Source of the DNA: Acidobacteriota bacterium
GTDB taxonomy: Bacteria; Acidobacteriota; UBA6911
Length of the DNA: 64,000 nucleotides
Assembly (NCBI GenBank): GCA_963664705.1
Contig: OY761556.1
Location: 6,496,001 to 6,560,000, forward strand
Reading direction: 5' to 3'
Position 1 is the stretch's first letter. Each line of letters starts with the position of its first letter. Shown here in pieces: positions 7,732-26,687 of the stretch. A program made the translations under genes and the position numbers. The notes beneath the pieces were generated by a model. It had not been told where the DNA came from and did no database searches. It saw nothing but the letters and a program-made list of their open reading frames with translations.

Positions 7732-8580
7732 ATGAGGGCCAGCGAAAAGGAATGCGCGTCGGCGGGAAACGATTTTGATGAACAAATCAGTGAGCTGATG
7801 GAAGAGCTAAAGCCTTTACTGGTCGAACATGGCGTGGATTTGGCAGCGTTGTCGGATGCAGGCAAAGAAGCTCTGCTCGAAATAGATAGAAATAATATAG
7901 GGAACTCTTCAGAACAGCTTCGCTCGTATTTTTTAGAACTGGTCTTATGGAACCTCTTTGCCAGTGGAAGCTCGCTTTGGATCAATTCCAGAACCACGGC
8001 TGGAAACATGGTCCCGTTGGAAATAATGACAATGGCATACGTGCTGTGGAAAGATGGCGTGTACCTGGCCGAGCATTACGGTGTGGATTCGGCAGTTGCA
8101 GCGGAAATCATGGCGCTGGTTACACACAAAGCAGCGGACAGGGTAATCAATTATGATGACGATCCTGAAAACGAACCTGTTCGAGACATCAAAAAATATG
8201 TTTTTACAGCATTCAGGTATGCCATTTACATGGTTGCCAAAAAACAGTCCTTACCTGCAAAGGATTTTCTTGAAATGAATAGTTTGAGCACGAATTGGGA
8301 GTCGGGGCTAAGCGGAGTAGAGAAACAGATATTCTGCGAAGAGCTGGTGAAAGCCATGCCTCCGAAGGCTCAAAAGATTTTCATGTCCTATCATGTTTCT
8401 CAATATAGTTGGAAAGAGACGGCTAAGGGATTGAGCCTGACAGTTGGTGCCGCCCAGAGAATTCTTAGCGATGCGATGATAAAGACATTTGGGATCCGGA
8501 TGCAGGAATTGCGAAGGATAGGCTTTCAACAGGTGACCGAAATTGAGAACTACCTGAAGAAAAAGCAGCGGATTCATTAA
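7732..8580 (+). CDS. Divergent ECF-like sigma-70 factor with N-terminal extension
   Basis: C-terminal region-4 HTH 'MPPKAQKIFMSYHVSQYSWKETAKGLSLTVGAAQRILSDA'; region-2-like 'DIKKYVFTAFR'; directly upstream of a zinc-binding anti-sigma. Confidence 0.7.
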   Translation: MRASEKECASAGNDFDEQISELMEELKPLLVEHGVDLAALSDAGKEALLEIDRNNIGNSSEQLRSYFLELVLWNLFASGSSLWINSRTTAGNMVPLEIMTMAYVLWKDGVYLAEHYGVDSAVAAEIMALVTHKAADRVINYDDDPENEPVRDIKKYVFTAFRYAIYMVAKKQSLPAKDFLEMNSLSTNWESGLSGVEKQIFCEELVKAMPPKAQKIFMSYHVSQYSWKETAKGLSLTVGAAQRILSDAMIKTFGIRMQELRRIGFQQVTEIENYLKKKQRIH

Positions 8581-8599
8581 TACAGAAGTAGAGATTTTC

Positions 8600-9355
8600 A
8601 TGACGAAGAGCGAAGAAGAACTGCGGGTTGAAATCCTGAAAAAAGCCTATATGACGGTCAATCCAAATCCGGAGCGCAAGGGTTGTCCCGAGCCCAAAGT
8701 GCTTCGAGATGTCGCCTATCACCGAAACATCGGCACACCGGAGCAGTTTGAAGCGATCATGGATCACCTCACAAAATGCTCTGCCTGCGTGCGTGATCAC
8801 ATGGCATTTGTTGAAGAGTACCAGGAAAAGAAAAAGCGAAATCAGCAAATGAAGCGATCTTTGCTGGGACTCGTGGCAGTACTGGTGATTTCGCTGGCAA
8901 TTTGGGCTGTCTGGCGCATTCGACCAAGACAAGAGATTGCCGTCAATCCTCCGAAACCACAGCATCAGGAATCCGGGAATCCAGTTTCACCCGATACTGG
9001 CAATCATAAAAACAATCCTCCCCAAATCGCCCAGCTGGAATCCGTCACGATTGAGATCCCCGCAAAACTGAGAGGCTCAGCCGAAACTGGGAATCCCATT
9101 GTCCTCAGCAGAGGGAAGCTGAATGCCGAATTCCGAATGCCAATCGGCAGCCCTGAAGGAAAATATAAGCTGCGGATTTCGGACATTTCCGGCAAAGCGC
9201 TTTGGACTGTGGAGAGAACTGCCTCAAAGGTGAATGGAATTACTGGCTTCAGATCGCCTTTGGATACTTCAAATTTACCATTTGGTGATTACAAACTCAG
9301 CATCCAAGAGCCTGGTTTTGCGGAATGGACGGATTATCCGCTCATAATAAAATAG
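8600..9355 (+). CDS. Zinc-binding (zf-HC2/ZAS) membrane anti-sigma factor with extracytoplasmic beta domain
   Basis: 'PNPERKGCP...HLTKCSAC' (HxxxCxxC), one TM helix, Pro-rich linker, C-terminal Ig-like domain ('LDTSNLPFGDYKLSI'). Confidence 0.75.
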   Translation: MTKSEEELRVEILKKAYMTVNPNPERKGCPEPKVLRDVAYHRNIGTPEQFEAIMDHLTKCSACVRDHMAFVEEYQEKKKRNQQMKRSLLGLVAVLVISLAIWAVWRIRPRQEIAVNPPKPQHQESGNPVSPDTGNHKNNPPQIAQLESVTIEIPAKLRGSAETGNPIVLSRGKLNAEFRMPIGSPEGKYKLRISDISGKALWTVERTASKVNGITGFRSPLDTSNLPFGDYKLSIQEPGFAEWTDYPLIIK

Positions 9356-9602
9356 ATTCCACTCACTGTTTTTAAGCCGCAGAATTTCACTTTAGAGTTT
9401 TACAGGCTATTCTGTAATTACGGGCTCCTGCCCAATTACCTGATAAGAATCCGCAATATCGAAGCTGCTGTAAATGGCCTTCGTGTCCATCGTTGTGATT
9501 CAAGGCTCAATAGCTGCGTTCAAATATCAACCTCTCAAGCTGCAGATTGTGAGGAACAAGGTTCCCATAGGCCTAGCTGTCTCAAATATTTGCACTTTTC
9601 GC

Positions 9603-9654
9603 TTGACAAACGTCTCATATATGTCGATTATCATCTCATGTATAGCGATAATCG
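9603..9654 (+). promoter_or_regulatory. Promoter and palindromic operator of the AAA/S8 operon
   Basis: TTGACA (9603) -17 nt- GATTAT; inverted repeat CGATTATC (9625-9632) / GATAATCG (9647-9654) overlapping the -10 and the start. Confidence 0.5.
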
Positions 9655-10798
9655 TTTCATGAATGAGTTATTTCGTATCGTAAAAGGCGCTCTTCGTCTC
9701 GATATTGAGAAAGTAAGGAATTACACCGCATTTTTGGCAGACAAGCTAGAAAAAGCAGGCGACGCATCTTCGGCAGGCAGACTGCGAAAGCTTCTCCAGG
9801 AAGAAGACCATCAACTCAGGCCAGCTGAAACGGCTTTCGCTGTTGCTCTCCCAGTCGATTCTGAGAGTCGATTCCCACTTCTTGAGCGAGTCGACCTCAA
9901 AGCTCTCCACGAACCCCCTGTGGTTTTGACGGAAGACCAGTGGGCTACTGCGTACGAGTTTCTCAGCATTGCCAAGAGTCACGCCCAGCTTGATGCCCAG
10001 GGCGTCACTGCCACTGTGAATCTACTGATGTATGGGCCTCCAGGATGCGGGAAGAGTCGCCTTGCACGTTTCTTTGCCCAAGAGCTTGGGCTCAGTCTCT
10101 ATATGGCCCGTCTGGATGGGCTGATTTCGTCATATCTTGGAAGCACAGCAAAAAACATTCGTGCCATATTCGATTTTGCTTCCAAAAATCCATGCGTTCT
10201 ATTTCTCGATGAGTTCGATGCTATTGCCAAGCTTCGTGCTGACTCTCAGGAACTTGGTGAACTTAAGCGTGTCGTTAACAGCTTCATACAGAACTTAGAT
10301 GCCCTCGGAGCACAATCAATAATTATTGCTGCCACAAATCATGAGTCACTTCTCGATTCTGCCGTGTGGCGGCGCTTTAGCTACCGCCTGCACCTTACCT
10401 ATCCCACGCCAGATCTGCGAGAGAAGATGTGGATTCAATTTCTCGCTCCACTCGAATTTCCACCACACGATATTGAACTTCTTGTGGATCTCTCAGAGGG
10501 TTTTTCGGGATCTGATATCCAGGAGATTTCCTTAAGGCTTCACCGGCGGCACATAACCACCAAAACTCATCCAGAGCTTAAAGACGCATTTCAGGTTCTA
10601 AAAAACATTGCCATCGGAGAAGGGGAGGACCGCAGGTTCGTCTCTCGTCTCAAAGATATGGATCCCCGTATAGTCGCTTCTGCTTTACGCGAGCGTAACC
10701 CCAAGCTCTATAGCCATTCATCGCTTGCCCATTTGTTTGGCGTTTCCAAAGCAACTGCCCATCGATGGGCGTTGAAAGGAGTGACTGACCATGCCTGA
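9638..10798 (+). CDS. AAA+ ATPase (IetA-like) with C-terminal HTH
   Basis: Walker A GPPGCGKS, Walker B LFLDEFD, 'SSYLGST', 'GELKRVVN', second region of homology 'LDSAVWRRF'. Start uncertain (ATG 9638, possibly leaderless, or ATG 9659). Confidence 0.88.
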   Translation: MYSDNRFMNELFRIVKGALRLDIEKVRNYTAFLADKLEKAGDASSAGRLRKLLQEEDHQLRPAETAFAVALPVDSESRFPLLERVDLKALHEPPVVLTEDQWATAYEFLSIAKSHAQLDAQGVTATVNLLMYGPPGCGKSRLARFFAQELGLSLYMARLDGLISSYLGSTAKNIRAIFDFASKNPCVLFLDEFDAIAKLRADSQELGELKRVVNSFIQNLDALGAQSIIIAATNHESLLDSAVWRRFSYRLHLTYPTPDLREKMWIQFLAPLEFPPHDIELLVDLSEGFSGSDIQEISLRLHRRHITTKTHPELKDAFQVLKNIAIGEGEDRRFVSRLKDMDPRIVASALRERNPKLYSHSSLAHLFGVSKATAHRWALKGVTDHA

Positions 10799-13142
10799 CA
10801 ATTCCGAACGAAAGGATATCTTTCGATCCCGTGATCGACTTCCTATCAAGTTGATTTTGCCTAAACAGGGGCGGGAACGAAAAGTTCCTGGGGGCGGGGG
10901 GCCTGCCAAGCCCTTTCGTTCGGTGGACACTGCGTACAGAAGACGACTCCATAGCCAGGTTACGGCCATTCGGGATGCTATCCTGCCGCAGGCTTCCAAA
11001 ATAGGCAGCATCCCGATCCGCGTTAGGCTTCTCTCAAAAGCCGTGGCCAAGAGCCACCGTCCTGAACACCTTTTTTCGCGCGACTCTTGCCCCATAATCG
11101 GCTCTGGCCATCTTGGCGAGCTATTTCTCAAGGCCTCACCAGATGGACTGGAAAAGCTTGCTTCCACCATTCACCGCAATCAAACCGATCAAACAATAAA
11201 GGAACTCTCCAGCATCGAATCGATAGAGCCCATTACTCCAGTTTTTCGGCGTCACGGGGTTCAATCCATCGACATCCTAAAAAAGAGCCCACGCAGCGAA
11301 AAGGGATTTTTCACCAGAGTCAGATTGTTTGATTTCGGCCCTGATGATGACCAAGCAAAGCTCGTTGATGACTTCCACGCCGCATGTCGACGGCAACACC
11401 TTTCCATTAGCCAGGAAGGGTACGAACCGAGCAGCCAAATATATCAGGTGGAATGCCGCTCGGAAGCGGATGTTGAACAGCTTTCCGGTATTATCGGTAT
11501 CCGCTCGATAACTCAGATGCCACTTATTCGCATGATTCGCCCACGCGTTTTGAATGCACGCCCTCTGCCTACAAGGCTTCCCATCGCCGGCGATGTGGAC
11601 GGAGATTTTCCCGTTGTTGTTGTTGTCGACAGTGGTGTTACGGATAAAAATTCCGAGCTTCAAACATGGATTGTCGGCCGCAAATCCGACGTTTCTCCGC
11701 AATATCGGAACACGGATCACGGTACCTTCGTCGCTGGTCTTATCTGTTGGGGCTCGCAGCTCAATCCTGACCTGGCCGGAATTGATTCCAATCCCTGCGG
11801 CGTTTTTGACCTTCAGGTAATTCCAAACGGCGACCCAAGCCGGGGCGATACTGACGACCTAATTGAAAGCGAATTTCTCCAGTCCCTTGAGTCTGCACTA
11901 AAACAATATGCCAACAAATATCGTGTTTGGAACCTCTCTTTAGGCTCCGATCAAGTTTGCTCGCTAGACGAATTTTCCCCTCTCGCCGAGCAACTTGATC
12001 ATCTTCAGGAAAAGTATCGAGTCTCCTTTGTCATAAGCGCCGGAAATTACGATACGCTTCCGCTCTTGGATTATCCACGAACGCTTCAGCAGCTTGACGT
12101 CGGTCGAATTACTTCTCCAGCCGACAGCGTCCTTGGAATTACAGTAGGCTCAGTCTCCCACATTGACTATAAAGCTCACGGACCCCGCCAGCATCATCCT
12201 TCTCCTTTTTCGCGGCATGGGGCAGGCCCAAATCACATAATTAAGCCTGACCTGATCCATTACGGAGGAACCTGCACTGTTGATGCCTCTCATACTTCCG
12301 GAATCCGCTCCGTTAACGCGAAAAGTTCTGCTGAGGATCTCGGTACTAGCTTTGCAGCTCCACTAATTTCCCGCACGCTTGCTCAGATCTATCATCAGGT
12401 CACTCCGACTCCATCACCCGTACTTGCCCGCGCACTTCTTACGCATCACGCCCGCGACCCCCGAACTGGAGACCGCGTGCCCGATGGAGACGAGAACTTT
12501 TTCGGCTTTGGCCTTCCGGCTACAGTTCCATACTGCCTTGAGTGCAGTCCGCACTCCTCTACGCTAATCTTTGAAGATACCTTGAGGCCTGGCTACTACC
12601 TAGAATGGGATGATTTCCCGTATCCCGCCGCTCTCCATCGTGAAGGACGCTACTACGGCCAGGTTTGGATGACTGTAGCCCTTGCTCCATCACGGGGGGG
12701 CCGTTGGGGGACTGAGTATTGTGAGACGCATATCGATGCGCACTTCGGCGTCTACGCTTCCAAGACGTCTCGACAGACGGGCGATGTGTCCGTACAATTC
12801 AACGGCCTGGTTCCCCCAGAGCATAAAAATCCAGGACTACTTTATGAATCATATCAGGTTGAGAAGTTGCGAAAGTGGGCACCAGTGCGTACATATTTTG
12901 GTGATCTAGGCGAACGTGGAAAACGCGGACTTCGCTGGCGTCTCAAGGTTCAGCTTCTCACACGTCACGGAATTGAAGATCAGGAAGCTTTTAAGCCACA
13001 GCCGTTTTCTCTCATTCTGACGATTGCAGACCCGCTGAAAAAGGCACCGGTCTATGATCAGATGGCGCAAACCGTTCACAACCGGTTCCAAGCTCAAAAC
13101 ATCGTAGTGCGTGCTGCATCTCGGATACGTACGCGTACTTAG
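10791..13142 (+). CDS. S8 subtilisin-like serine protease (IetS/Y4bN-like)
   Basis: Intact triad VVVVDSG / DHGTFVAG / GTSFAAP and oxyanion ISAGN; no signal peptide; overlaps the ATPase stop. Confidence 0.9.
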   Translation: MPDNSERKDIFRSRDRLPIKLILPKQGRERKVPGGGGPAKPFRSVDTAYRRRLHSQVTAIRDAILPQASKIGSIPIRVRLLSKAVAKSHRPEHLFSRDSCPIIGSGHLGELFLKASPDGLEKLASTIHRNQTDQTIKELSSIESIEPITPVFRRHGVQSIDILKKSPRSEKGFFTRVRLFDFGPDDDQAKLVDDFHAACRRQHLSISQEGYEPSSQIYQVECRSEADVEQLSGIIGIRSITQMPLIRMIRPRVLNARPLPTRLPIAGDVDGDFPVVVVVDSGVTDKNSELQTWIVGRKSDVSPQYRNTDHGTFVAGLICWGSQLNPDLAGIDSNPCGVFDLQVIPNGDPSRGDTDDLIESEFLQSLESALKQYANKYRVWNLSLGSDQVCSLDEFSPLAEQLDHLQEKYRVSFVISAGNYDTLPLLDYPRTLQQLDVGRITSPADSVLGITVGSVSHIDYKAHGPRQHHPSPFSRHGAGPNHIIKPDLIHYGGTCTVDASHTSGIRSVNAKSSAEDLGTSFAAPLISRTLAQIYHQVTPTPSPVLARALLTHHARDPRTGDRVPDGDENFFGFGLPATVPYCLECSPHSSTLIFEDTLRPGYYLEWDDFPYPAALHREGRYYGQVWMTVALAPSRGGRWGTEYCETHIDAHFGVYASKTSRQTGDVSVQFNGLVPPEHKNPGLLYESYQVEKLRKWAPVRTYFGDLGERGKRGLRWRLKVQLLTRHGIEDQEAFKPQPFSLILTIADPLKKAPVYDQMAQTVHNRFQAQNIVVRAASRIRTRT

Positions 13143-13274: not shown

Positions 13275-14174
13275 TCATATGGAGACCATGATTGATTTCA
13301 ACTCACTTTCGGGGAATATGAGAGCGAACACCTGATAGGTGCTGTCAAAGGCCTCTAGGTATAAGGTCTCTGAGATCTCAGTGATGGGCGATTCAATTCG
13401 ACAGCGCTTCGTCAGCTTTTTATTGAATTGAGGAAGCCTGTTTCCTAGCGGATCTCGGCTATAGAACGCATCTGGCCATTTAACTATTCCGAAACGATCG
13501 AGGAATCTTTGGGATGCGACCACGCGGCGCAGTTCAAATCGATTTCCACGGCTAACTTCATGCACAGGCTCATCGAAGATTAGCACCGCACAGCAGCGGT
13601 GACTGGTCGAAACGAAGCGTCGCATGGCCGCATATACTGAAGATCCGTACCTTTTCGCAAGATCCATTGGAGTCTTAATCGCAAACGGGAGCACTTTTGC
13701 ATCTTTCTCAAACCGGTCAATCTGGAAGAGCACTTCAGATGCGAATACTCCCGCTTGTCGCTCAAACTCCTGTTTCACCTCTGGATCAAGTTCGGCCTCA
13801 CCATCCTCAACAAGCGCATATGCATCTCTTTGCCAGGGTAAGAATCCGTGCCCTGTTTCGTGGAGGGATACAAATCGTCGTTTTTGTTCTTTAACGCTTA
13901 GATCAAGGTAAATTATTTTATCCTGAGAATCGAATAATCCGAGAACTTTGTCCAATGCTTTTTTAATGGTTCCGGTAACAGCGCCGTAAGCCCTCTTCAG
14001 GAATCCTTCATCAAGAGAGGCCCCTGCAACAGAAAGTTCTGCCGCCGCGATGATTTTCTCTACGGGCGTTGGAAACTGGTCGCATGCACCCGCTTGCCTC
14101 AGCAAGCGGGCGGCATGTTTCCGAATCTCCGTATGCATTTCAGGGGGGACAGAACAGTCATCGGCTTTACTCAT
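13275..14174 (-). CDS. ImmA/IrrE-family zinc metallopeptidase (CapP-like)
   Basis: 'RRFVSLHETGH' (HExxH), 'FERQAGVFASEVLF', HTH linker 'LAKRYGSSVYAAMRRFV', C-terminal GAF-like region. Start reassigned to ATG 14174, coupled to the XRE stop. Confidence 0.88.
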   Translation of the reverse strand: MSKADDCSVPPEMHTEIRKHAARLLRQAGACDQFPTPVEKIIAAAELSVAGASLDEGFLKRAYGAVTGTIKKALDKVLGLFDSQDKIIYLDLSVKEQKRRFVSLHETGHGFLPWQRDAYALVEDGEAELDPEVKQEFERQAGVFASEVLFQIDRFEKDAKVLPFAIKTPMDLAKRYGSSVYAAMRRFVSTSHRCCAVLIFDEPVHEVSRGNRFELRRVVASQRFLDRFGIVKWPDAFYSRDPLGNRLPQFNKKLTKRCRIESPITEISETLYLEAFDSTYQVFALIFPESELKSIMVSI

Positions 14175-14568
14175 CTTTTCCTTTCCTTTGCTTAGAACGT
14201 AAGAAGGCAAGGTATTTCAGCAGTTCCTCTTCTTCTTCTCGGCTAAGAGGGCCGAGAGATGCCGGAACTACTGATCCCTTCAGCTGCAGCGAAGCTGCCC
14301 GCAATTTTGGCGATGCCTTTATGTATCCTGCCTTTTGCATCAGTACCTCATAGGGAACCTTATAGAATTCCGCTAACGCATGCAGGATGTGAGGCGACGG
14401 CTTGCTGATCTTATCGTTCTCCAATTGGCTTAGATATGCATTCGAGACCTCAGTGCCTTCCTCTACTTCCCGCAGTGTATGTTTTCGAGTTTGGCGTATG
14501 TTTCGAAGAAACTCACCGAGGCTTTGTCCAGCGCCTTCCGGCGATGCCAATTCATTTTTGCCGCTCAT
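14167..14568 (-). CDS. XRE-family HTH repressor (CapH/ImmR-like)
   Basis: 'LGEFLRNIRQTRKHTLREVEEGTEVSNAYLSQLENDKISKPS'; C-terminal oligomerisation helix 'LSREEEEELLKYLAFLRS'. Confidence 0.9.
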   Translation of the reverse strand: MSGKNELASPEGAGQSLGEFLRNIRQTRKHTLREVEEGTEVSNAYLSQLENDKISKPSPHILHALAEFYKVPYEVLMQKAGYIKASPKLRAASLQLKGSVVPASLGPLSREEEEELLKYLAFLRSKQRKGKDE

Positions 14569-14614: not shown

Positions 14615-14677
14615 TTGCTAAAGTTAGCAAGCATTGCGTGCTGGTTGCTTGACATACTACGCAACGCGTAGTATATT
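14615..14677. promoter_or_regulatory. Divergent control region with consensus sigma70 promoter and two palindromic operators
   Basis: TTGACA (14649-14654) -17 nt- TATATT (14672-14677); ATACTACGC-AAC-GCGTAGTAT (14654-14674) fills the spacer; TTGCTAA-AG-TTAGCAA at 14615-14630. Confidence 0.75.
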
Positions 14678-14739
14678 TAGATTTGTGAAATATGGAAATG
14701 TTTATTTCCAAAACTCTTAACCTTTTTAAGGAGACAATT

Positions 14740-15732
14740 ATGTCTGTCCATTCTGTTGAAGAAACCTGGGTTGAGACTCTTGACGCGTCCCTCCCCGAAT
14801 CAATTCCATCCGCAAAAACCTTAGGTGCACTGCCTCCTGGACTAGCAAAGCTCAAGATACGCCTGGCGATTCAGCGTTGGCCCAATGGCGAAGAAAGCCA
14901 TTTCAGGGCAGAACTCTCCGATAGTCTCGTCGAGATACTTCGTCACGGAGCCGAGGCTCTTGGAACGCCCGCTCTTCCTCCTCATCCCGCGGAGCCACTG
15001 GATACCCTTTTATGCCGGCGACATGGACACGAATGGGAATCCTTGGCTGATCTCCAAACTCCGCTTTGGATTCTGCTTGCCGAAGGCTTTTCTCGCCATT
15101 TCGCGATCGATTTTAAGACGATAATTCAAATCAATGCGCGGTGGGGAACCGCCTCCAATTCCAGCATGAGCCCCCGGGAACTCCTAACTTCATTTGGTTT
15201 TGACCCGGCTCAATTTAGCTTGTACTACGCCACGAGTTCGGATCTTCTCCCACCAGACACTCCGCTGAACATTCAGCGAGGCGACCGTTTCGAAGCACAA
15301 AAGGACGGGCGATACGGCTTTGTGTCGTCCCGTCCCCCACGGGGGACTCAAACCATCGAAGAGGAAATTGAAGAGCTTCAGAAGCAAGGACTCGATATCA
15401 AACTCACGAGCCAAAATAGTCAGCGTTATGTTGAACTCTTGGGATTAGAGATTCCCTCTCCTCCCTGGTCAACTTCACGAGCAGACATTCTTATTGCGGT
15501 TCCGGGCATATACCCGCAAGGAGGCCTCGATGCGTTTTATTTGCACACTACTGTTTCTCATACAAATGGGCAAATTCCCTATCAGCAATCCATTGCCGAG
15601 ATTGCAGGCATGTCGTGGGCTTTGATTTCATGGCACTACTCTCAGAGCCGTCCTTGGAATCCAGTTTTGGATGACCTTGCATCTCATATAGTCCATTGTC
15701 GTGGATTCTTTCTACAGCGAGGCATCCGATGA
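14740..15732 (+). CDS. Ubiquitin-like domain(s) fused to prokaryotic E2 family E domain (Bub-like Ubl-Ubl-E2)
   Basis: AAGGAG RBS before ATG 14740. Multi-ubiquitin-like unit 'IQINARW...SPRELL...FSLY...TPLNIQRGDRFEAQKDGRYG', then E2-E motifs 'ILIAVPGIYPQGGLDAFY' and 'WALISWHY...WNPVLDDLASH'. Confidence 0.78.
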   Translation: MSVHSVEETWVETLDASLPESIPSAKTLGALPPGLAKLKIRLAIQRWPNGEESHFRAELSDSLVEILRHGAEALGTPALPPHPAEPLDTLLCRRHGHEWESLADLQTPLWILLAEGFSRHFAIDFKTIIQINARWGTASNSSMSPRELLTSFGFDPAQFSLYYATSSDLLPPDTPLNIQRGDRFEAQKDGRYGFVSSRPPRGTQTIEEEIEELQKQGLDIKLTSQNSQRYVELLGLEIPSPPWSTSRADILIAVPGIYPQGGLDAFYLHTTVSHTNGQIPYQQSIAEIAGMSWALISWHYSQSRPWNPVLDDLASHIVHCRGFFLQRGIR

Positions 15733-17129
15733 ACCTGAGAATATCCGAATCGCATTGGCGAGACGTACAACGAGCTACCATGTCCAGCTTCTCAAAAGCT
15801 CTTGGGCGGCCTGCCGAAACCGGCTGCATTTTGCTTTGTGGACACAACGCACACTCAGTCCGTCCGAGTCTTTTGGTTGCCGATGTTCTAATTCCCAGTG
15901 ACCAGGACCTTAAAGATCAGGAGTATGGTGGTTTAACGTTTTCTAGTAGTTACCTTCGGCGTGCCCTCCTTACTGTACGGCAACGCGGACTAAAGGGGTT
16001 TTTGACCCTGCATACTCACCCACTAGCAGATAGATACGTCGGCTTTTCCAACTACGACAATGAAAATGATCCTCAGTTAATGCAAAACTTATATGAGATG
16101 CAACAAGATGGATTATTTGGAAGCATTGTCATAGGCAAGAACTCTGCTGCCGCCAGGATCTGGGATTGTTCAAGGTTCCTGCCTTTAAGGAATTTGGTAA
16201 TCGTGGGCGAACAGCTATGTTTTATCCCGTTGAACGGAGACTCCTCAACGATAGCAGTCCCGGAAGCATCTGAAATCTTTGATCGCAGTTTGGCGCTAAC
16301 CGGGCAAGGAGCGCTTTCTATTCTATCTCAGCTCCGCATTGCAGTAATCGGGGCTAGTGGCACAGGATCTCTCATCGTGGAACTTCTGGCTCGCGCAGGG
16401 GCTGGAGAGATCGTCCTTTTCGATTTCGATACAGCAGATCACACTAATCTAAATCGCGTGCTCTACCTGCGAACGAGAGACACTGATGTAAAGAGGATTA
16501 AAGCTGAACGTCTCGCTGAAGCCATCAAAGAAAGCGGCCTCCCGTCACGTATCACCATAGTCAAAGATGGTGATATTCGGAAACCCGAGGTAGCCAGCGA
16601 ACTGCGTGGTTGTGATCTCCTAATCGGGTGCGTAGACCGCGATTGGCCGCGTCTCATTCTCTCCGAGGTTTCGTATCAATATCTATTGCCCTATCTGGAT
16701 CTCGGAACCGAAATTGGAATTTCTGACGATTGCATTCAAAGTATCGACTCCAGAACATCATATGTCTGTCCCGGACGTCCATGTTTGCTTTGCAGTAAGG
16801 TTGTCTCCCAAGAACGTCTGCGTCTCGAAACGCTTGAAAGTGATGAACAAGACCGCGTTATAAAAATGGGTTATTCTGCGGATATTCGCCTTAAAGCACC
16901 TGCTGTTATGGAACTCAACATGCGCTCTGCTTCCTTAGCCATGTTCCTTCTCCGCAATCTCCTTCAGCCCTTCCTGGCTGCTCCTGTACCACACACAATT
17001 AAGGAAGCGCTTACAAACTACTCAACTCGCCAGCTTTTTTACTCCGTCATGCCCAAATGCCCGTGTTGTGATTCAGAGCGCCTCGGCGCGGGTGGTTCAT
17101 CGCGTCTAAGCACTAGACCGCAGGCTTAA
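15729..17129 (+). CDS. JAB/JAMM peptidase - ThiF/E1 fusion
   Basis: ATGA overlap with the upstream stop. JAMM motif 'ETG...HTHP...FSNYD'; E1 motifs 'IGASGTGS', 'DFD...NLNR', 'GCVD', zinc pairs 'CLLC' and 'CPCC'. Confidence 0.88.
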   Translation: MNLRISESHWRDVQRATMSSFSKALGRPAETGCILLCGHNAHSVRPSLLVADVLIPSDQDLKDQEYGGLTFSSSYLRRALLTVRQRGLKGFLTLHTHPLADRYVGFSNYDNENDPQLMQNLYEMQQDGLFGSIVIGKNSAAARIWDCSRFLPLRNLVIVGEQLCFIPLNGDSSTIAVPEASEIFDRSLALTGQGALSILSQLRIAVIGASGTGSLIVELLARAGAGEIVLFDFDTADHTNLNRVLYLRTRDTDVKRIKAERLAEAIKESGLPSRITIVKDGDIRKPEVASELRGCDLLIGCVDRDWPRLILSEVSYQYLLPYLDLGTEIGISDDCIQSIDSRTSYVCPGRPCLLCSKVVSQERLRLETLESDEQDRVIKMGYSADIRLKAPAVMELNMRSASLAMFLLRNLLQPFLAAPVPHTIKEALTNYSTRQLFYSVMPKCPCCDSERLGAGGSSRLSTRPQA

Positions 17130-17266: not shown

Positions 17267-18334
17267 TCATCTCCTATATTCCGCCGTCAGCTGACGCTGG
17301 ATACGGCTATCCTGGTCACGAATCTGCAAATATGCCAGGGAAGATCCTCCACATGAATCGATATCAATCACACCAAAACTTTTTTCATAAAAGAGATTTG
17401 CAGCTCTGTGCTGATTCTTCTCTGGCGAGAAGAAAGCTCTTAAATGATAGAAGAAATCGACATGGTGGGTCAGGCCGCTGCTTGTGACATCATATAGAGA
17501 ATACGGCAATTGCGGATCATCTAATCTGGATATCTCCGCAAGGTGGCGATCGCCGCTTAGGATAACGGTGAGCCTTGGTTTTGCATCTGTGAGCAATTGC
17601 AGGATTCGTTTTCGTGATTTCGGATAATTGCCCCAATGCTCATAGGGATGCTCGCAGGAAAGCAATTGAATGCTGGATCCAAGCAGAACAATTTCATCTC
17701 TACTATCTCTCAGTTCTTTTTCAAGCCATTGCCATTGCTTCTCACCGAGGAGATCACTCTCCGGTCCCGGTACATCTGCGTTGTAGCGGAGATCCAGAAG
17801 GATGACTTTGATTCGCCCCGCAGGCTTGCCATATGTATAGGAAGCATAAACGCCGTCCTGCTTCCGGCGAGGGCTGTCTTGCGGTTCATCTATGAAATCA
17901 AGAAAAAGCTGTTGGCTCTCAGCCTTCTTCGAGTAATGCTTGTTACCATTTTTCATCCCATAATCATTGTCATCCCAGGTGCCAATGATGGGGCACTGCT
18001 TTCTCATCTCTGCGTATTCGGGATTCTGTTTCTGTTTTTCGTACTGGCTTCGCAGATATCCCACATCTTCAGTAGCGGCATCGACGCTGTCTCCGAGCCA
18101 GATCCAGAGGTCGGGCTTGCAGTTGACAATAGCTCGCCACATATAGTTTGGCTTCCATTGTTTGTTGCAGGAACCGAATGCAATTCGAAAAACGCCAGGC
18201 CCAGCCGGGTTGCGATCAATATGATCACCCATTGGCGCAACTGTTCGCGTGGAATAAAGCTGAGCAACCGGGATGGCAATCACAATGAGAGCCATCAGCA
18301 GCCCCAGGAATTTAAAAGCATGTCTAAGCTTCAT
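17267..18334 (-). CDS. PhoD-family phosphatase/phosphodiesterase with altered active-site motifs
   Basis: N-terminal signal/TM; 'IAFGSCN', 'WLGD', 'WDDND', 'LLDLRY', 'LGEKQWQWL', 'LSGDRH', 'DVTSSGL'. Confidence 0.85.
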   Translation of the reverse strand: MKLRHAFKFLGLLMALIVIAIPVAQLYSTRTVAPMGDHIDRNPAGPGVFRIAFGSCNKQWKPNYMWRAIVNCKPDLWIWLGDSVDAATEDVGYLRSQYEKQKQNPEYAEMRKQCPIIGTWDDNDYGMKNGNKHYSKKAESQQLFLDFIDEPQDSPRRKQDGVYASYTYGKPAGRIKVILLDLRYNADVPGPESDLLGEKQWQWLEKELRDSRDEIVLLGSSIQLLSCEHPYEHWGNYPKSRKRILQLLTDAKPRLTVILSGDRHLAEISRLDDPQLPYSLYDVTSSGLTHHVDFFYHLRAFFSPEKNQHRAANLFYEKSFGVIDIDSCGGSSLAYLQIRDQDSRIQRQLTAEYRR

Positions 18335-20991
18335 TGTAATTTCTCTCCTGTGTCAGCAGGCCGGGATTCGATAAAAAGAGAATCGGAACTATCGCCAATC
18401 ATCAGCATTCCCGCCCAGTGCTTTGGGAGTGCATTGTCCTTGTATTCTCCAATAAAATCCAACTTCGCCTGGCGCAGAGCAGATCCCTTGTCCATTCCAT
18501 GCGCCAAATATGAGTAGAAGCGAGTCATCAGCTCCGCCGTGGAAAGATCCTCTGTGGGCCAGATGCTTGCTACCACAGATCGCGCGCCGGCCATCAGAAA
18601 GGATTTAACCAAATTGGAGACTCCCTCCTGGTCCAATACTCTTCCCATTGCGGTATCGCATGCGGATAGAACGACCAAATCGGCTTTTAGTCGGAGCCGG
18701 CTGATTTCCCACGCCTGAAAGATGCCGTCATCGCGTTCATCAATCTGAGGTCCAAATAGAAGTGCTGACCTGGCTGGAAATCTCGGATCTGAAATGCCAT
18801 GAACTGCAAAATGGAGGATGTCGAAATTTTCCAGGCTAAGCGACTTAATTGCTGATTCGCTGACAGATTCTCCGAGCAAGGTAAAGCTATCAGTCGCGCC
18901 CTTCATCTCTTTAGCGATCGTTGATATTTCAGTAAGCGAACCCTCCAGTCTGGACGGTCGCGGCAGATTATTAAAGTAGATGAGTCCGGATTCGTCTGAA
19001 GCAGGGTATCGAACATCACCCACACCCAAAAACTTTCGTTTACCCGTTCGCATTACCGGGGTTTTCCTGAGAAGGTATGTAATTGTTGCCGATGGGCTGT
19101 AATCAATCATGTGCAGTTCCAGAAAAGGCCTCCCGGAGGGCACCGGAATTGCCTCGAAGGGAAGTAAGTGCAGCAATCCATCCGGCACAATTGTAATTCG
19201 TGGCTTATGATCGATATCTGGGAGCGGACGGATCAACAGGTCATAGAGTCTTTGGGCGAATTGGGTACTTTTTCGGTTTTGCAGAATATCATTGCGATAG
19301 TTTGAAACAGCCTCTTCAATCACATGCCTGGGAGCAAGCGTGATGCCCTGAACACCGGATCGACTGATTACCAAGCAGGTAGAGGAAGGCTCTCTCAATA
19401 CATATTCAAGAATGACTTCTGCTGAATATAGGCCTTTTTGAATTTCTGCTAACGGGATTGGAGAAAATGTCAGCGCCTCAATATTGTGCCGACCAGCTTC
19501 TCGGCTGGATCCAAGATGCTGTTCCAAATCGAAAATTTCGCTTTGAATTCGATGTTGTTCCAGCGGATCTTTCTTTTTCCAGAGCTCGGCTTGGAGGCGA
19601 GTGAGTGACCGTTCGTATTTCTCGAAAGGATTTTGATCCTTTTCTCCCACTGCCGGAGTGGGATCTAACCGTCGTCCTCTAAGAGAATCTGAAATGCTTC
19701 TGCCACGAGCCTGTTCCAGAATTAGGAAAGCTTTTGCCGGATCATTGAGTCGATGGAGCGAAAACGAAAAGTAGTCAGAGTAAAGGCTGCTCATTCTGGC
19801 AACGAGGAAAGCACGAGCATGGGCACTCGTAAATTTCCCCAGCAGACCGTTTAGGGTTTGCAGCGCTTCATTGTAGAGGAGATCGGCCTCAGCGATCCGG
19901 CCTTGGTCTGCCCGAATTGCTGCCCTGTTCCGAAGATGGAGAATGGTTTCTGTTGGATCTCCAGATTTCAAGCTCGAATGGAAACCCACTTCAGCACAAT
20001 CAAGCCCTTTCCACAATTCGTCTCGTGTGAGATGAATTTGTGAAAGGTCCAGAGATATTTTTGAAATTAGCCGATGATAACCAATTTCCAAGGAAATATT
20101 GAGGGCTTGTTTCAGCAAATCTGCGGCCTCCACAAGTCGGCCATTCTCGAAATGCACATGCCCCTGTAGATATAGCGCTTGGGCATTCTGAGCGGGAGCT
20201 CCGGTGAGTCGCGCCTGAGCTATGCAATGCTCAACCAAAGGCGTTGCATCCTGAAGTCGATTGGATGCGATGAGAATTATTGCCTTCTCAAAAAAGGCTG
20301 GGGAATAGGAGAACGCTTGTTCGCGTTCTATTAGGTCAATCGCGCGATCAAGATGGCCAAGGGCATCTTGATTCTTTCCTGCACTGCTATAAAGACAGGC
20401 GATGGCAGTCCTGAATCGCAGTTCATTCATCCCATCGCCGATCTCTGCTGCGTGCCAAAGGACTGCAGAGACTTCATCTGATCCAATTGGATCTCCATCC
20501 AACACCTTCAACAGGCCGAGCTCTCCCCGTGCGCGGTCCTCCAAATGCTTATCCCCAGCCTTTTGAGAGAGCATGAGGACTTCCTGCCAATCCCGCCGGC
20601 GCTGATAGGCATTAAAAACGAAGGCGCTTAGGGCATCAGTGTCAGACTCAACATCGGCTTTTAAAAACAGCGCTCTGAGACGAACCGTTGGATTGTTTTT
20701 TGCCGGCAAACGCCCAATCTCTCTTCTTAGAGCATCACAAATTTGCTGGAGAGAATATTCCTTAATAGAAGCTCGAATGCTTCCATGCCTGGCCATTGCT
20801 GCGCTTTCAATGTCACCTGCCACAAGAAGCTGCTTCTCTGCTTCCTGGTAAAGCGGCAGTGCTTTGCCCCATTGGTATCTCTCTGCATGCAGATCCGCCT
20901 GCCGGAGCATTTCATTGCCAGACTCCAAAGACCAAGCCGTCCGTGAACAGCAGATGGTTGCAACTAGTAGGAACCAATAGATTGCTTTCAT
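18331..20991 (-). CDS. Exported TPR-CHAT (caspase-like, HetF-family) protease
   Basis: Signal-peptide-like N-terminus, TPR helices, CHAT motifs 'EQARGR', 'IVPDGLLHLLPFEAI', catalytic 'HFAVHG' and 'VLSACDT', 'AGARSVVASIW', 'PKHWAG'. Confidence 0.92.
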   Translation of the reverse strand: MKAIYWFLLVATICCSRTAWSLESGNEMLRQADLHAERYQWGKALPLYQEAEKQLLVAGDIESAAMARHGSIRASIKEYSLQQICDALRREIGRLPAKNNPTVRLRALFLKADVESDTDALSAFVFNAYQRRRDWQEVLMLSQKAGDKHLEDRARGELGLLKVLDGDPIGSDEVSAVLWHAAEIGDGMNELRFRTAIACLYSSAGKNQDALGHLDRAIDLIEREQAFSYSPAFFEKAIILIASNRLQDATPLVEHCIAQARLTGAPAQNAQALYLQGHVHFENGRLVEAADLLKQALNISLEIGYHRLISKISLDLSQIHLTRDELWKGLDCAEVGFHSSLKSGDPTETILHLRNRAAIRADQGRIAEADLLYNEALQTLNGLLGKFTSAHARAFLVARMSSLYSDYFSFSLHRLNDPAKAFLILEQARGRSISDSLRGRRLDPTPAVGEKDQNPFEKYERSLTRLQAELWKKKDPLEQHRIQSEIFDLEQHLGSSREAGRHNIEALTFSPIPLAEIQKGLYSAEVILEYVLREPSSTCLVISRSGVQGITLAPRHVIEEAVSNYRNDILQNRKSTQFAQRLYDLLIRPLPDIDHKPRITIVPDGLLHLLPFEAIPVPSGRPFLELHMIDYSPSATITYLLRKTPVMRTGKRKFLGVGDVRYPASDESGLIYFNNLPRPSRLEGSLTEISTIAKEMKGATDSFTLLGESVSESAIKSLSLENFDILHFAVHGISDPRFPARSALLFGPQIDERDDGIFQAWEISRLRLKADLVVLSACDTAMGRVLDQEGVSNLVKSFLMAGARSVVASIWPTEDLSTAELMTRFYSYLAHGMDKGSALRQAKLDFIGEYKDNALPKHWAGMLMIGDSSDSLFIESRPADTGEKLQ

Positions 20992-21000
20992 ATCTGGCCG

Positions 21001-23976
21001 CTAAAACTGATATCTCAGAGCGAGCTGAAGCTGAAATGGCGCTCCGGCATAAAGACCGTTTGTGTTGAGAGATCCGTTTGGCAGGTATTTTGTCCGGAAG
21101 GTTGGCAGCGGATTCTGCCCTGGTCCCCACAAAGAGCCGATAGCACCGGAAGGTCCTTGCTCATTCGGATTAGCGGTGAATAAAAGGTTCTTGGCATTCC
21201 AAAGATTGAACAACTCAGCGCTCACATGCAATTTGCTAGTTTCTCCAATACTGAACATTTTTAGGACCCGAAGATCATGCTGGAAATGGTTTGGCTGGCG
21301 AAAAGAATTCCTGAGAAGTGGAATCCCATTGATGATCGGACGATCGGTAAGCTGGCCATCTCCATTGCTGTCCATGCCGGTAAAAGCGCTGAAGGGTGTC
21401 CCTGTGCGCCATTCTACGGTCGAGCTCGTCGTCAATCCCCAGGGAAGCTCCCATAAACTATTGAGAATCCAGCGATGGCGAATATCGTTCCGACTCCAGC
21501 GGTACTCGGATCCAAGATCAAATGCGTTTTCGTAGTTGATTCCGAGATAGTTGCGTTCGTTTGAGTCGTCATCTTTGTTATAGGAAAGGACATAATTTGT
21601 CCGAAATTGCATCCTGGAGAACCTGCGTTCAAGCCCCACTATGAGAGCATCATAATTTGAGCGAGCGTTGCTTTCCTGTTGACGAAGAATGCCGAACGCC
21701 GGGTTAGGTCTGGCGCTGAGATCGAAGTGCGGCCGCAGTACTGACGGGATTGAATTGTCAGGTTCAATCGTTGGCTGCGGCAGATTTACATCTCGGATTC
21801 TCTCCAGGTGGACAGTGTGGCTGTGAACAAAAGAAATATTCCCAACAAAGCTATTGGTTAGCCGTTGTTCAATGGAAATGCCGTATTGGAAGGCTCTCGG
21901 GTTCCGGAAGTCGGATGCGAAAAATGAAACGTCGGGCCTGACGTTAAGGCCCAGAGATGTGAAATACGAAGCATCTTGCGCATTCGCGGTTTCAGGAACG
22001 AACGGGAAAACGAATTCCGGCCGAGCTTTTTGGATCGCGCCTATTTGTGGAGCGACCAGATCGAATGTGACTCCGACCTCAGGATTGCCGTTGGAGTTGA
22101 ACGCCTGGTTGACCAGCAAATAGGGGGTCCGCGCATTAAAAAGGCCGGTTCCGAGACGGATAACCGTTCGGCTACCGGATCCGGGGCTCCAGGAAAGCCC
22201 CAGACGAGGCTGCCACATATTTAAGTCGCTGGGCACTTCGGAAGTGTTAGGCAGAAGTTGATTGGGCTTTGAAGGTTGAGGCATGAGCGCGGCTTCATAT
22301 CGAAGTCCGGCATAAAGGCTCAAATTGGAACTCAGCCGTATTGAGTCCTGCAGGTAACCGGCGAAATCCCAGAATCCGGCTTGAAATCGTCCATTGCCGA
22401 AATAGATTCTCATGAAATCGGCAGGATAGGGTTGCCCGGTTGCTGGATTGATTTGTCTTTCTGACGTGCGAATGTAGTTGTTAAGACTCGTGAATAGGTA
22501 GAGCCCCCGCCAGTTTCCGCGAAAGGTTTGAAAAACGGAGGTGCGGCTTACATCTAAGCCCAACTTCACATGATGTCTGCCTTTGATAAATGAAACGTTA
22601 TCCGCAAACTGCCAGCGTCCATCGTGCTGAATCGCGGGAAGCGTTGCTAATCCTCCAAATGCGCAGCAACCGACAATTCGAATTTCCGGCCCGGCGATAC
22701 TCCTGAAATCATTGCCCTCCAGATTGTTGGTTCGCGGCCGGGATTCATAGGAGTAATGAGCCCGGAATTCATTGAAAATGCCCGAACCGAAACTGCTGTT
22801 TAACGACATAACGACTGCATGTGTTGAGTCGCGTTCTGTTCCATTGTTTTCAAGAGAACTGTCCGTGACGCCAAAATTGGTAGCGTTTGCAGCCTTATTT
22901 GTGCTGAAACTGTACCGCATGCTGAGTTCGTTGCGTGATGACAGTCGATGATCGATCTTGGCCATATAGGTGGCCACATTATTGGTAGTTTTGAACGTGC
23001 CCTGCTTTCCCATGATCTCAGGGGGACCACTAGCCAGGTTGAAGCGGACTGTTAGCGGTTGCTGTTCGCGCTGGCCGTCGAAAACTGTGAAGAAAAATGT
23101 TTTGTCTTTAACCAATGGCCCGCCAAGGCTGGCACCAAATTGTTGCCGCGTTGGGGCGGTATCAAAACCAAAGATGTTTTTGGGAGAGAATTCACGGTGG
23201 CGCAGGTAATAGAAAGCGCTTCCGTGAAAATTGACCGATCCGGATTTGGTGACGACGTTTATCACTCCACCGGCACTTCTACCGAATTCAGCCGAGAAGT
23301 TGGAATGAACGATGCGAAATTCCTGAATGGCTTCCTGACTTAGGATATAGGCGAAATTTGAGCGCTCGCCGCCGCGTTGTCCACCAAAGAAAGGCTGATT
23401 AAAATCAGCTCCATCCACATTGACGGCACTGTTGATGCCTCTTGCGCCGGATAAACTTAGCTGCCCGCGCTCATGTTCCTGGTAGAGGCCTGGAGACAAT
23501 AGTGCGAGATCCAGGAATCGGCGGCCGTTGAGCGGAAACGCTCCGATCTCAGATTGGTCAATAACGCTGCTGATCTCAAATTGTGAGGGATTGGTGATTG
23601 ACGCTTTATCTTGAACTTCAATGAATTGCGAAATGGTCGCAGGCTGCATTGTCACTTCAATAGAGCGCATCTGGCCTATGTTAACGATAATGCCGGTGAT
23701 CCTAACCTCTGAGAAACTCGTCCGATGAGCTGTGATCTCATATTTGCCCACCGGGAGTTGAGTAATCGTGAAAAATCCTTCGGGGGAAGTGCGGTCAGTG
23801 CGCGTAATACCCATCTCAATATGTCTGGCCATGATGAGTGTATCGGGAAGAACACCTCCCGTTACATCACGGACAATGCCCTGAATCTCTCCGGAGCTGA
23901 TTTGGGAATGAGCAATATAGGGGAAGCAAAACCAGAAGATCACCGCGATAATCCTGCATAGCTTCATGACAGTCAT
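21001..23976 (-). CDS. TonB-dependent receptor, Oar-like, with N-terminal carboxypeptidase-regulatory-like domain
   Basis: Signal peptide, 'GEIQGIVRDVTGGVLP', 'PLNGRRFLDLALLSPG', 'FSAEFGRSAGGVINVVTKSG', terminal 'QLALRYQF'. Confidence 0.92.
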   Translation of the reverse strand: MTVMKLCRIIAVIFWFCFPYIAHSQISSGEIQGIVRDVTGGVLPDTLIMARHIEMGITRTDRTSPEGFFTITQLPVGKYEITAHRTSFSEVRITGIIVNIGQMRSIEVTMQPATISQFIEVQDKASITNPSQFEISSVIDQSEIGAFPLNGRRFLDLALLSPGLYQEHERGQLSLSGARGINSAVNVDGADFNQPFFGGQRGGERSNFAYILSQEAIQEFRIVHSNFSAEFGRSAGGVINVVTKSGSVNFHGSAFYYLRHREFSPKNIFGFDTAPTRQQFGASLGGPLVKDKTFFFTVFDGQREQQPLTVRFNLASGPPEIMGKQGTFKTTNNVATYMAKIDHRLSSRNELSMRYSFSTNKAANATNFGVTDSSLENNGTERDSTHAVVMSLNSSFGSGIFNEFRAHYSYESRPRTNNLEGNDFRSIAGPEIRIVGCCAFGGLATLPAIQHDGRWQFADNVSFIKGRHHVKLGLDVSRTSVFQTFRGNWRGLYLFTSLNNYIRTSERQINPATGQPYPADFMRIYFGNGRFQAGFWDFAGYLQDSIRLSSNLSLYAGLRYEAALMPQPSKPNQLLPNTSEVPSDLNMWQPRLGLSWSPGSGSRTVIRLGTGLFNARTPYLLVNQAFNSNGNPEVGVTFDLVAPQIGAIQKARPEFVFPFVPETANAQDASYFTSLGLNVRPDVSFFASDFRNPRAFQYGISIEQRLTNSFVGNISFVHSHTVHLERIRDVNLPQPTIEPDNSIPSVLRPHFDLSARPNPAFGILRQQESNARSNYDALIVGLERRFSRMQFRTNYVLSYNKDDDSNERNYLGINYENAFDLGSEYRWSRNDIRHRWILNSLWELPWGLTTSSTVEWRTGTPFSAFTGMDSNGDGQLTDRPIINGIPLLRNSFRQPNHFQHDLRVLKMFSIGETSKLHVSAELFNLWNAKNLLFTANPNEQGPSGAIGSLWGPGQNPLPTFRTKYLPNGSLNTNGLYAGAPFQLQLALRYQF

Positions 23977-26610: not shown

Positions 26611-26687
26611 TGGTAGCGACGGGTGGAATCGAACCACCGACCTTGGGGTTATGAATCCCACGCTCTAACCGTCTGAGCTACGTCGCC
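26611..26687 (-). tRNA. tRNA-Met (CAT), elongator type; probable ICE integration site
   Basis: GGCGACGTAGCTCAGACGGTTAGAGCGTGGGATTCATAACCCCAAGGTCGGTGGTTCGATTCCACCCGTCGCTACCA: cloverleaf, CAT anticodon, encoded CCA. A TTGAAA-17-CAAAAT promoter lies upstream (26722-26750). Confidence 0.95.

Follow-up and report, generated by a model that had tools for sequence, protein, structure and literature searches.

A probable Type I Bub-type operon from a bubE-less branch in an Acidobacteriota genome

Introduction

Type I Bub operons, which encode bacterial ubiquitination-like systems, consist of a ubiquitin-like protein (Ubl) fused to an E2, a JAB peptidase fused to an E1 and the DUF6527 protein BubE (Ye et al., bioRxiv 10.1101/2024.11.21.623953). 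A stretch of 64,000 nucleotides from an Acidobacteriota bacterium (GenBank assembly GCA_963664705.1, contig OY761556.1, positions 6,496,001 to 6,560,000; referred to as the window) carries the two fused genes, here named bubAB (14740-15732) and bubCD (15729-17129), on the forward strand. We consider it probable, at roughly 0.72, that the window holds a Type I Bub-type operon from a branch lacking bubE, which would tag proteins through Tyr and Ser oxyesters after a likely DNA-damage signal.

The biochemistry of Bub has been shown only for proteins of Citrobacter and E. coli (Ye et al.). The Citrobacter JAB cuts its pre-protein after Gly229, and did so within a 30-min in vitro assay without a trigger, while conjugation is lost with the substitutions Y370F and S333A/H335A. 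When co-expressed, the serine protease BubE nearly erases conjugates in cells; conjugates accumulated despite the wild-type JAB, and the authors suggest that JAB mainly cleaves the pre-protein. Table S1 of the same study also lists split Type I operons, and 38 two-domain Ubls (7%) were counted among Bub operons by Gong et al. Earlier, polyUbl proteins fused to an inactive E2 were described in some species (Iyer, Burroughs and Aravind, 2006; PMC1779556). Therefore, neither the polyprotein nor the cysteine-free transfer sites are new, as both were published by Ye et al. and Iyer et al.

The Ubl-E2 Pre-protein and Its Cleavage Site

The bubAB gene, preceded by a ribosome site rated good (AAGGAG, 14728-14733), encodes a pre-protein of 330 aa with two Ubl domains and an E2, as assigned from Pfam, a structure model and homologues. 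Two predicted beta-grasp domains, QKDGRYG (in which the codon of G193 is 15316-15318) and Prok-E2_E follow one another in a single uninterrupted reading frame, in agreement with the initial annotation made from the sequence alone. Prok-E2_E is the sole Pfam match (residues 210-318, E 3e-12) and was matched in 47/47 aligned members, and no model of NCBIfam or PADLOC matched BubAB. The AlphaFold model (pLDDT 90, pTM 0.59) contains two beta-grasp units, likewise anticipated by that annotation, and a UBC fold.

Structural alignments of this model delimit the domains. Residues 1-37 (14740-14850) form a helical extension in the model; its function is unassigned, and it is missing from several distant relatives according to the alignment and to shorter stand-alone Ubls. 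The first beta-grasp domain (residues 38-125, 14851-15114), delimited by model secondary structure and structural alignment, had no Pfam match in the 47/47 members scanned; residues 38-126 align with the UBL of USP15 (Z 8.6, rmsd 2.3, 80 aligned), and the domain also matches chain 6h77_Q (Z 8.0). The second (15115-15318) ends in QKDGRYG193, the predicted mature C-terminus in view of the structural match, the conservation of G193 and the split relatives described below. Its residues ~126-190 fit ubiquitin (Z 8.0, rmsd 1.5, 61 aligned) and a multi-Ubl of M. brachiatum, with Z 8.0-8.1 over the two. A Z near 8 is modest alone, and the match lists at both Ubl ranges are filled with ubiquitin-fold chains. 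BLASTP detected no mutual similarity between the two beta-grasp domains. The linker and the E2 follow at 15319-15729, where residues 205-329 superimpose on Citrobacter BubB (Z 15.5, rmsd 2.2, 120 aligned).

A protein search found 177 BubAB relatives of similar length, of which the best 120, self excluded, share 47-57% identity. Over 120 aligned sequences, G193, S297 (15628) and H299 (15634) are present in 120/120 and D264 (15529) in 119/120. S297, within the motif WALISWH, occupies the place of the catalytic Cys, and the His and Asp nearby are kept. At the DNA level, 97 related loci were collected from 18 genomes and 79 metagenome contigs; relatives in the genome contigs were recovered by an alignment-based scan, as a single-protein scan gave none. 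By record title, the 18 genomes are mostly Acidobacteriota, with Planctomycetota, Omnitrophota, Chloroflexota and Alphaproteobacteria also represented. Two of them (G004 and G017, carrying L004 and L017) are unpublished and fall inside the sets of 97, 55 and 61 loci used here; L017 is also one of nine split examples and a tree row, and no conclusion hangs on these two genomes alone.

The initial annotation had raised the concern that homologues might carry a stop codon between Ubl and E2, making the fusion an artefact. By the motif, 69 of the 97 loci are fused, 10 are split and 18 are not scorable, and in two assemblies from a single sample, which may be the source of the window, the fusion has neither a stop nor an indel. 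An artefact is ruled out by the fused loci, the homologues of similar length and the two assemblies. The absence of a separate E2 start had been proposed as well. There is indeed no internal ATG before the E2, but an in-frame GTG lies at 15322; a start at this codon is unlikely, its Val being kept in just 6/120 aligned sequences.

Among the 10 split loci, L009 looks like a frameshift; in the other nine a stop falls 1-9 codons past DG[KR]YG, and the E2 starts at or near it. A similar picture came from 149 new cluster representatives. The motif is present in 39, of which 31 are stand-alone Ubls ending 1-12 residues beyond the Gly and eight continue further; no motif-bearing representative ends on the Gly itself. 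These endings support Gly193 as the predicted end of the mature Ubl, and with no relative's Ubl ending on the Gly, trimming is required in every case. The domain anatomy, cleavage after Gly193 and Tyr and Ser chemistry, as first proposed from the sequence, are well supported through homology to the proteins of Ye et al., the cut site also through the split relatives. Separately, two stand-alone Ubls (P0143 and P0167) bear ~170-190 extra N-terminal residues resembling two further repeats, and possibly contain four beta-grasp domains, above the 1-3 reported.

The JAB-E1 Protein

The start of bubCD overlaps the stop of bubAB (ATGA), and its product of 466 aa joins a JAB/JAMM peptidase to a ThiF-type E1, confirming what had been read from the open reading frame. 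Pfam finds ThiF (E 2e-20) and, beneath the curated cut-off, Prok-JAB (E 8e-4), whereas PADLOC gives weak E1 matches only. Similarity to Citrobacter BubCD (9ea4) reaches a phmmer E of 1e-36, and the model (pLDDT 91, pTM 0.91) matches that protein with a Foldseek TM-score of 0.79-0.80. The JAB active site E30, H95, H97 and D110 (15816-16058) aligns to Citrobacter E28, H91, H93 and D104; in the E1 (16455-17069), the adenylation residue R243 falls on R227 and the crossover-loop residue Y382 (16872-16874) on Y370 without gaps in the alignment to 9ea4. These matches allow for a two-residue offset of the chain numbering. The E1 has a single adenylation domain.

The set of intact BubCD proteins comprises 52 of the 97 loci and the window, the 52 forming 43 groups at 90% identity and 24 at 70%. 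Invariant in 53/53 are E30, H95, H97, D110, R243, Y382, the four cysteines C352, C355, C444 and C447, and likewise C301. The catalytic positions probed by Ye et al. (E30 and D110 of the JAB, R243 and Y382 of the E1, S297 and H299 of the E2) all carry the expected residue in the window proteins and hardly vary among relatives. Residues 356-443 contain no Cys in the window protein, and a Cys occurs at 383 in 9/53 relatives. The initial annotation had described both transfer sites as apparently cysteine-free. This stands for S297 in WALISWH and for the GY loop (Y382) after CLLC, but not for the proteins as wholes, as C320 of the E2, C301 of the E1 and the four-cysteine set are present. The four cysteines are predicted to form a zinc site, which we assume from the ThiF/MoeB family. 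In addition, three near-identical loci (L085, L087 and L092) have a bubCD truncated after about residue 228, which suggests a decayed copy.

The four-cysteine pattern and the scores of ThiF/MoeB models, all far under their cut-offs, could point to a ThiS/ThiF-like sulfur-carrier system instead of protein conjugation. Such a function is scarcely credible given that TIGR02356 scores 58.8 bits against a cut-off of 275, that the best structural match is BubCD (TM 0.8, compared with ~0.44 for ThiF), that the E2 with conserved Ser, His and Asp is fused to the Ubl, that Tyr382 is invariant and that a stress regulator accompanies the operon. Moreover, no conserved sulfur-metabolism neighbour was seen among the genes inspected.

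A Conserved HxxHC Motif in the E2

The E2 of this branch carries H316-x-x-H319-C320 (15685-15699), with H316 and C320 in 120/120 aligned sequences and H319 in 118/120. Since C320 is invariant in the branch, the E2 is not free of cysteine. A broader sample of 55 cluster representatives that span this site has Cys at position 320 in 37 members, with Val, Ala, Ile or Ser in the other 18, while position 319 holds Phe in 24 and His in 22; Citrobacter BubB has Ala at the position matching 320. In the UBC fold, position 320 presumably belongs to the helix that follows the active-site loop and faces the buried side. C320 looks structural, and H319 looks to be the branch-specific residue.

It is very unlikely that the motif is functional, as a metal site or a second thioester relay that would make the branch a Ser/Cys hybrid. 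The conservation over the 120 sequences and the retention of the motif in split relatives of ~35% identity would favour such a role. Nevertheless, the variation at 319 and 320 among the 55 representatives follows a buried-helix pattern, the Citrobacter BubB works with Ala there, and the Ser-x-His/Asp site is kept in full. In a tree of the E1 segment, built without Citrobacter from 43 rows of which 39 are different (24 chosen related loci, the window and 18 others), a 20-row fused group is supported at 95/99 and the entire HxxHC group at 76/30. A single origin of the latter is not demonstrated because of this low support.

Absence of bubE

The gene after bubCD in the window encodes a PhoD-like phosphatase on the opposite strand. 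In 55 loci the end of bubCD is complete and followed by 500 nt or more of sequence (at least 2 kb in 39), the other 42 being excluded as truncated; downstream of bubCD in these 55, no gene is conserved and no family occurs in more than five. The initial annotation had noted that no substrate gene is present, and this extends to the 55 loci; neither a substrate gene nor an E3 gene is conserved at the related loci. A metallophosphoesterase gene, unrelated to the PhoD-like phosphatase of the window, follows bubCD in L049, L050, L056, L064 and L067.

A profile built from 16 BubE sequences gave no match among the 97 loci (best E 0.42); as a control it recovered held-out BubE loci such as L115, and also the bubE of the window's own genome, which is one of the seeds. 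With Pfam, DUF6527 was not found in 17 of the 18 relatives' genomes, which are incomplete metagenome-assembled genomes (MAGs); the remaining one, G012, has a DUF6527 gene ~39 kb from its copy, in a separate operon. The window's genome (G000) contains one DUF6527 above the cut-off (G000:C1:5595597-5595989), ~915 kb off at the end of another Bub operon. Two further Bub operons in fact converge at G000:C1:5592600-5599000 (L019, L125 and L132), and each encodes its single-domain Ubl and its E2 in separate genes. In the first, bubE is the last gene, and a helix-turn-helix (HTH) gene and a peptidase-like gene lie upstream; in the second, a gene of 278 aa takes the last place instead of bubE. The C-terminal part of this 278-aa product is presumably TIR-like.

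The DUF6527 genes in G000 and G012 raise the question of whether the window operon is served in trans by the BubE of another Bub locus in its genome. This is highly improbable, as DUF6527 is matched in just one of the 18 relatives' genomes and each of these bubE genes belongs to an operon of its own, with a different BubCD ahead of it and a Ubl that ends in another sequence. It is more conceivable, though still tentative, that bubE is unneeded because the JAB both matures the Ubl and removes the tag, as BilC does in the related Bil system, where it cleaves the pre-Ubl as well as Ubl-target conjugates (Chambers et al., bioRxiv 10.1101/2023.09.26.559546). The JAB site intact in 53/53 proteins and the lack of bubE at the 97 loci and in 17/18 genomes are consistent with such reversible tagging. 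Against it, Citrobacter conjugates accumulated with wild-type JAB (Ye et al.), and the conservation of the JAB is already accounted for by maturation, because no relative's Ubl ends on the Gly.

The header of Table S1 in Ye et al. describes the published operons as the DUF6527-containing ones from an earlier survey. Since this set was chosen on DUF6527, BubE-less operons could not be counted, and the apparent presence of bubE in every Bub operon is a product of the way in which the list was compiled. A literature search, with most subscription journals outside its reach, found no published BubE-less Bub operon. The missing bubE, which the initial annotation had overlooked, is the main departure from the published type.

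Transcriptional Regulation

The operon is preceded by two genes on the reverse strand, a divergent CapH-like repressor with an XRE-type HTH (14167-14568; Pfam HTH_3/HTH_19, PADLOC capH E 5e-7) and a CapP/IrrE-like M78 metallopeptidase (13275-14210; Pfam Peptidase_M78, PADLOC capP E 2e-18). The initial annotation had mentioned CapH/CapP regulators as neighbours of Bub-type operons, and a pair of this kind is present here. Among the related loci, 61 include 1.8 kb or more of upstream sequence, and 53 of these carry a divergent gene of the M78 cluster; Pfam confirmed the domain in 8/9 tested. By comparison, CapH and CapP together accompany 168 of 544 published Bub operons (31%; Ye et al.). On meeting single-stranded DNA, CapP cleaves CapH; this cleavage and induction by DNA damage have been demonstrated solely in E. 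coli MS115-1 (Lau et al., bioRxiv 10.1101/2022.04.27.489752).

Upstream of bubAB lies a sigma70-like promoter on the forward strand, TTGACA-17-TATATT (14649-14677), with 11/12 consensus positions, whose spacer holds a perfect palindrome with 9-bp arms (14654-14674), the candidate repressor site. An arm of at least 9 arose in 15/2000 simple shuffles. TTGAC precedes bubA in 18/22 HTH-type loci, and L084 has a nearly identical palindrome. Promoter-like sites region-wide (3, with 3.0 expected) are not above chance; therefore, the case for this promoter rests on match quality, position and conservation. Taken together, the CapH/CapP-like pair and the promoter palindrome suggest that the switch is transcriptional, not proteolytic. 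The initial annotation had instead regarded processing of the pre-protein as an on-switch with 1:1 stoichiometry. This idea is weak, as the split loci and stand-alone Ubls encode Ubl and E2 separately, so that fusion and a 1:1 ratio are dispensable; furthermore, the JAB is co-encoded, the Citrobacter enzyme cut without a trigger and the CapH/CapP-like pair is the likelier switch.

Upstream regions differ among the relatives. Instead of the HTH gene, 29 of the 61 loci have two uncharacterised genes before the M78 gene (for instance L001:3914-5744 and L008:807-5550); these had no Pfam match in 8 tested and, with the M78 gene, possibly form a new DNA-damage sensor module. In a subgroup of 14 loci the M78 domain forms the N-terminal part of a long protein, which in the two tested is an M78-UvrD-PD(D/E)XK fusion of ~1,150 aa. 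A STAS-like (DUF4325) gene lies upstream of a split operon at L010:4935-5903, possibly a regulator of CapK/CapS type. Gene pairs that we take to resemble DarT/DarG occur near the regulator at L001:1885-3605, L004:2974-4769, L006:3237-4962 and in L057.

Proposed Mechanism and Genomic Setting

By analogy with CBASS, the CapH-like protein would keep the promoter at 14649-14677 silent until single-stranded DNA activates the CapP-like peptidase and the repressor is cleaved; induction by DNA damage is suggested by this context. As in Citrobacter, and with the boundary backed by split relatives, the JAB would probably cut BubAB after Gly193 into a two-domain Ubl and a free E2. The E1 would likely adenylate Gly193 and pass it to Tyr382 and then to Ser297 of the E2, aided by His299 and Asp264; the residues are seen in the proteins, and the chemistry is proposed by analogy. 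Because neither an E3 nor a substrate gene is conserved, the E2 would likely select targets itself and form an isopeptide between the Ubl and a lysine. From context, proteins of invading phages or other mobile elements would be the most likely targets. As there is no BubE and the Citrobacter JAB left conjugates intact, the tag may be long-lived, with control at transcription, which is the weakest step.

The operon lies in a low-GC stretch with type IV secretion system genes, an integrase and att repeats of tRNA-Met; the 3' half of the tRNA recurs ~121 kb away at its closest, which marks the limit of an integrative conjugative element spanning up to ~121 kb. IetAS (AAA ATPase and S8 protease; 9590-13142) adjoins the operon and stands directly downstream of bubCD in four related loci (L009, L023, L025 and L084). 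Searches of viral contigs and 50,697 phage records returned no relative; among 72,556 plasmid records there was no match over most of the query and one partial match to a haloarchaeal plasmid.

The conjugative element, the use of ImmA/ImmR-like pairs to control other such elements and the lack of phage protection shown for any Bub in the published accounts would fit a role other than phage defence, in which the system tags conjugation or regulatory proteins of the element that carries it, for transfer control or exclusion, or serves in general stress. This is unlikely, as the neighbouring genes differ greatly between loci and no mobility gene is conserved immediately after bubCD, several loci adjoin IetAS and the plasmid records gave no match over most of the query.

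Several points weigh against tagging of invaders by a BubE-less, DNA-damage-controlled operon. Identity to the Citrobacter Bub proteins is 18-26%, the chemistry of the BubE-less branch is drawn by analogy, and the E2 carries the invariant C320. As for the missing bubE, the genomes of the relatives are incomplete MAGs, and both profiles could miss a BubE that has diverged strongly. The loci are kin, so that 53/61 overstates independence and describes a lineage trait instead of 53 events. The role of the palindrome is a guess, because the CBASS CapH site sits upstream of the -35 and not in the spacer. The JAB of Bil removes conjugates (Chambers et al.), which makes the long-lived tag the weakest part. 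Furthermore, Ye et al. found no phage protection by Bub, and a 2026 paper (PMC13373217) repeats that none has been shown.

A bolder proposal, that a soil and wetland Bub branch shed its deconjugase and turned to one-way tagging under tight DNA-damage control, with the branch-specific HxxHC site, as a metal site or a second acyl relay, recognising or attacking the target, is very unlikely. If true, no complete ubiquitin-like conjugation system would be smaller than these two genes, and the operon would be well suited to tracking down Bub targets. A natural two-gene operon should in any case accumulate conjugates in the absence of BubE, which could ease the identification of targets.

Further features surround the operon. 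The regions 7732-9355 and 18331-23976 flank a defence cluster inside the element and encode an ECF-like sigma factor, a membrane anti-sigma-like gene, a TPR-CHAT protease and a TonB-type outer-membrane barrel. The tRNA-Met gene of the window (26611-26687) has three further copies of its 3' part upstream, at G000:C1:6316669, 6362611 and 6401473, which suggests a tandem array of elements integrated at one site.

Comparison With Known Systems

The closest described system is Type I Bub (formerly 6E.1 or DUF6527) of Citrobacter sp. RHBSTW-00271 (PDB 9EA4, 9EAE and 9EAV). Both have the Ubl-E2 fusion followed by the JAB-E1 fusion, the Gly at the junction, the JAB E/H/H/D, the E1 Arg and crossover Tyr, the E2 Ser-x-His and Asp, the upstream CapH/CapP-like pair and a mobile element at a tRNA gene. 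They differ in that the window has no bubE, two instead of three beta-grasp domains and a 37-residue N-terminal extension, the HxxHC motif in its E2, and CxxC...CxxC in its E1, where Citrobacter has TLSD at the first pair. Hence the operon falls outside strict Type I Bub membership by its missing bubE but not, as far as sequence can tell, outside the mechanism.

Among the 'polyUbl' operons of row 6e (PMC1779556), the polyUbl, a Cys-less E2/RWD-like domain, sometimes fused, and the JAB-E1 are shared, whereas the metal-binding protein named in the 2006 table is lacking in the window. The Bil system (BilABCD; Chambers et al.) shares JAB trimming after a Gly, the absence of an E3 and CapH/CapP upstream; neither has a separate serine protease, and the short post-Gly tails of Bil Ubls resemble the split relatives here. 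In contrast, Bil uses catalytic cysteines, four separate genes and a multi-domain E1 (IAD-AAD-CYS), while the window uses Tyr and Ser and fused genes. Type II Bub, with an E2-E1 fusion (BubBD), a separate Ubl and typically no JAB, is not matched, the window having its E2 on the Ubl and its E1 on the JAB. With regard to CapH/CapP of CBASS (Lau et al.), the known site is of 22 bp and upstream of the -35, unlike the spacer palindrome that is the candidate operator here, and the divergent HTH gene and M78 peptidase upstream of the operon match the arrangement. The gain over these systems is incremental, as the chemistry and the polyprotein logic were already known; what the window adds is a branch set apart by its missing bubE and its E2 motif.

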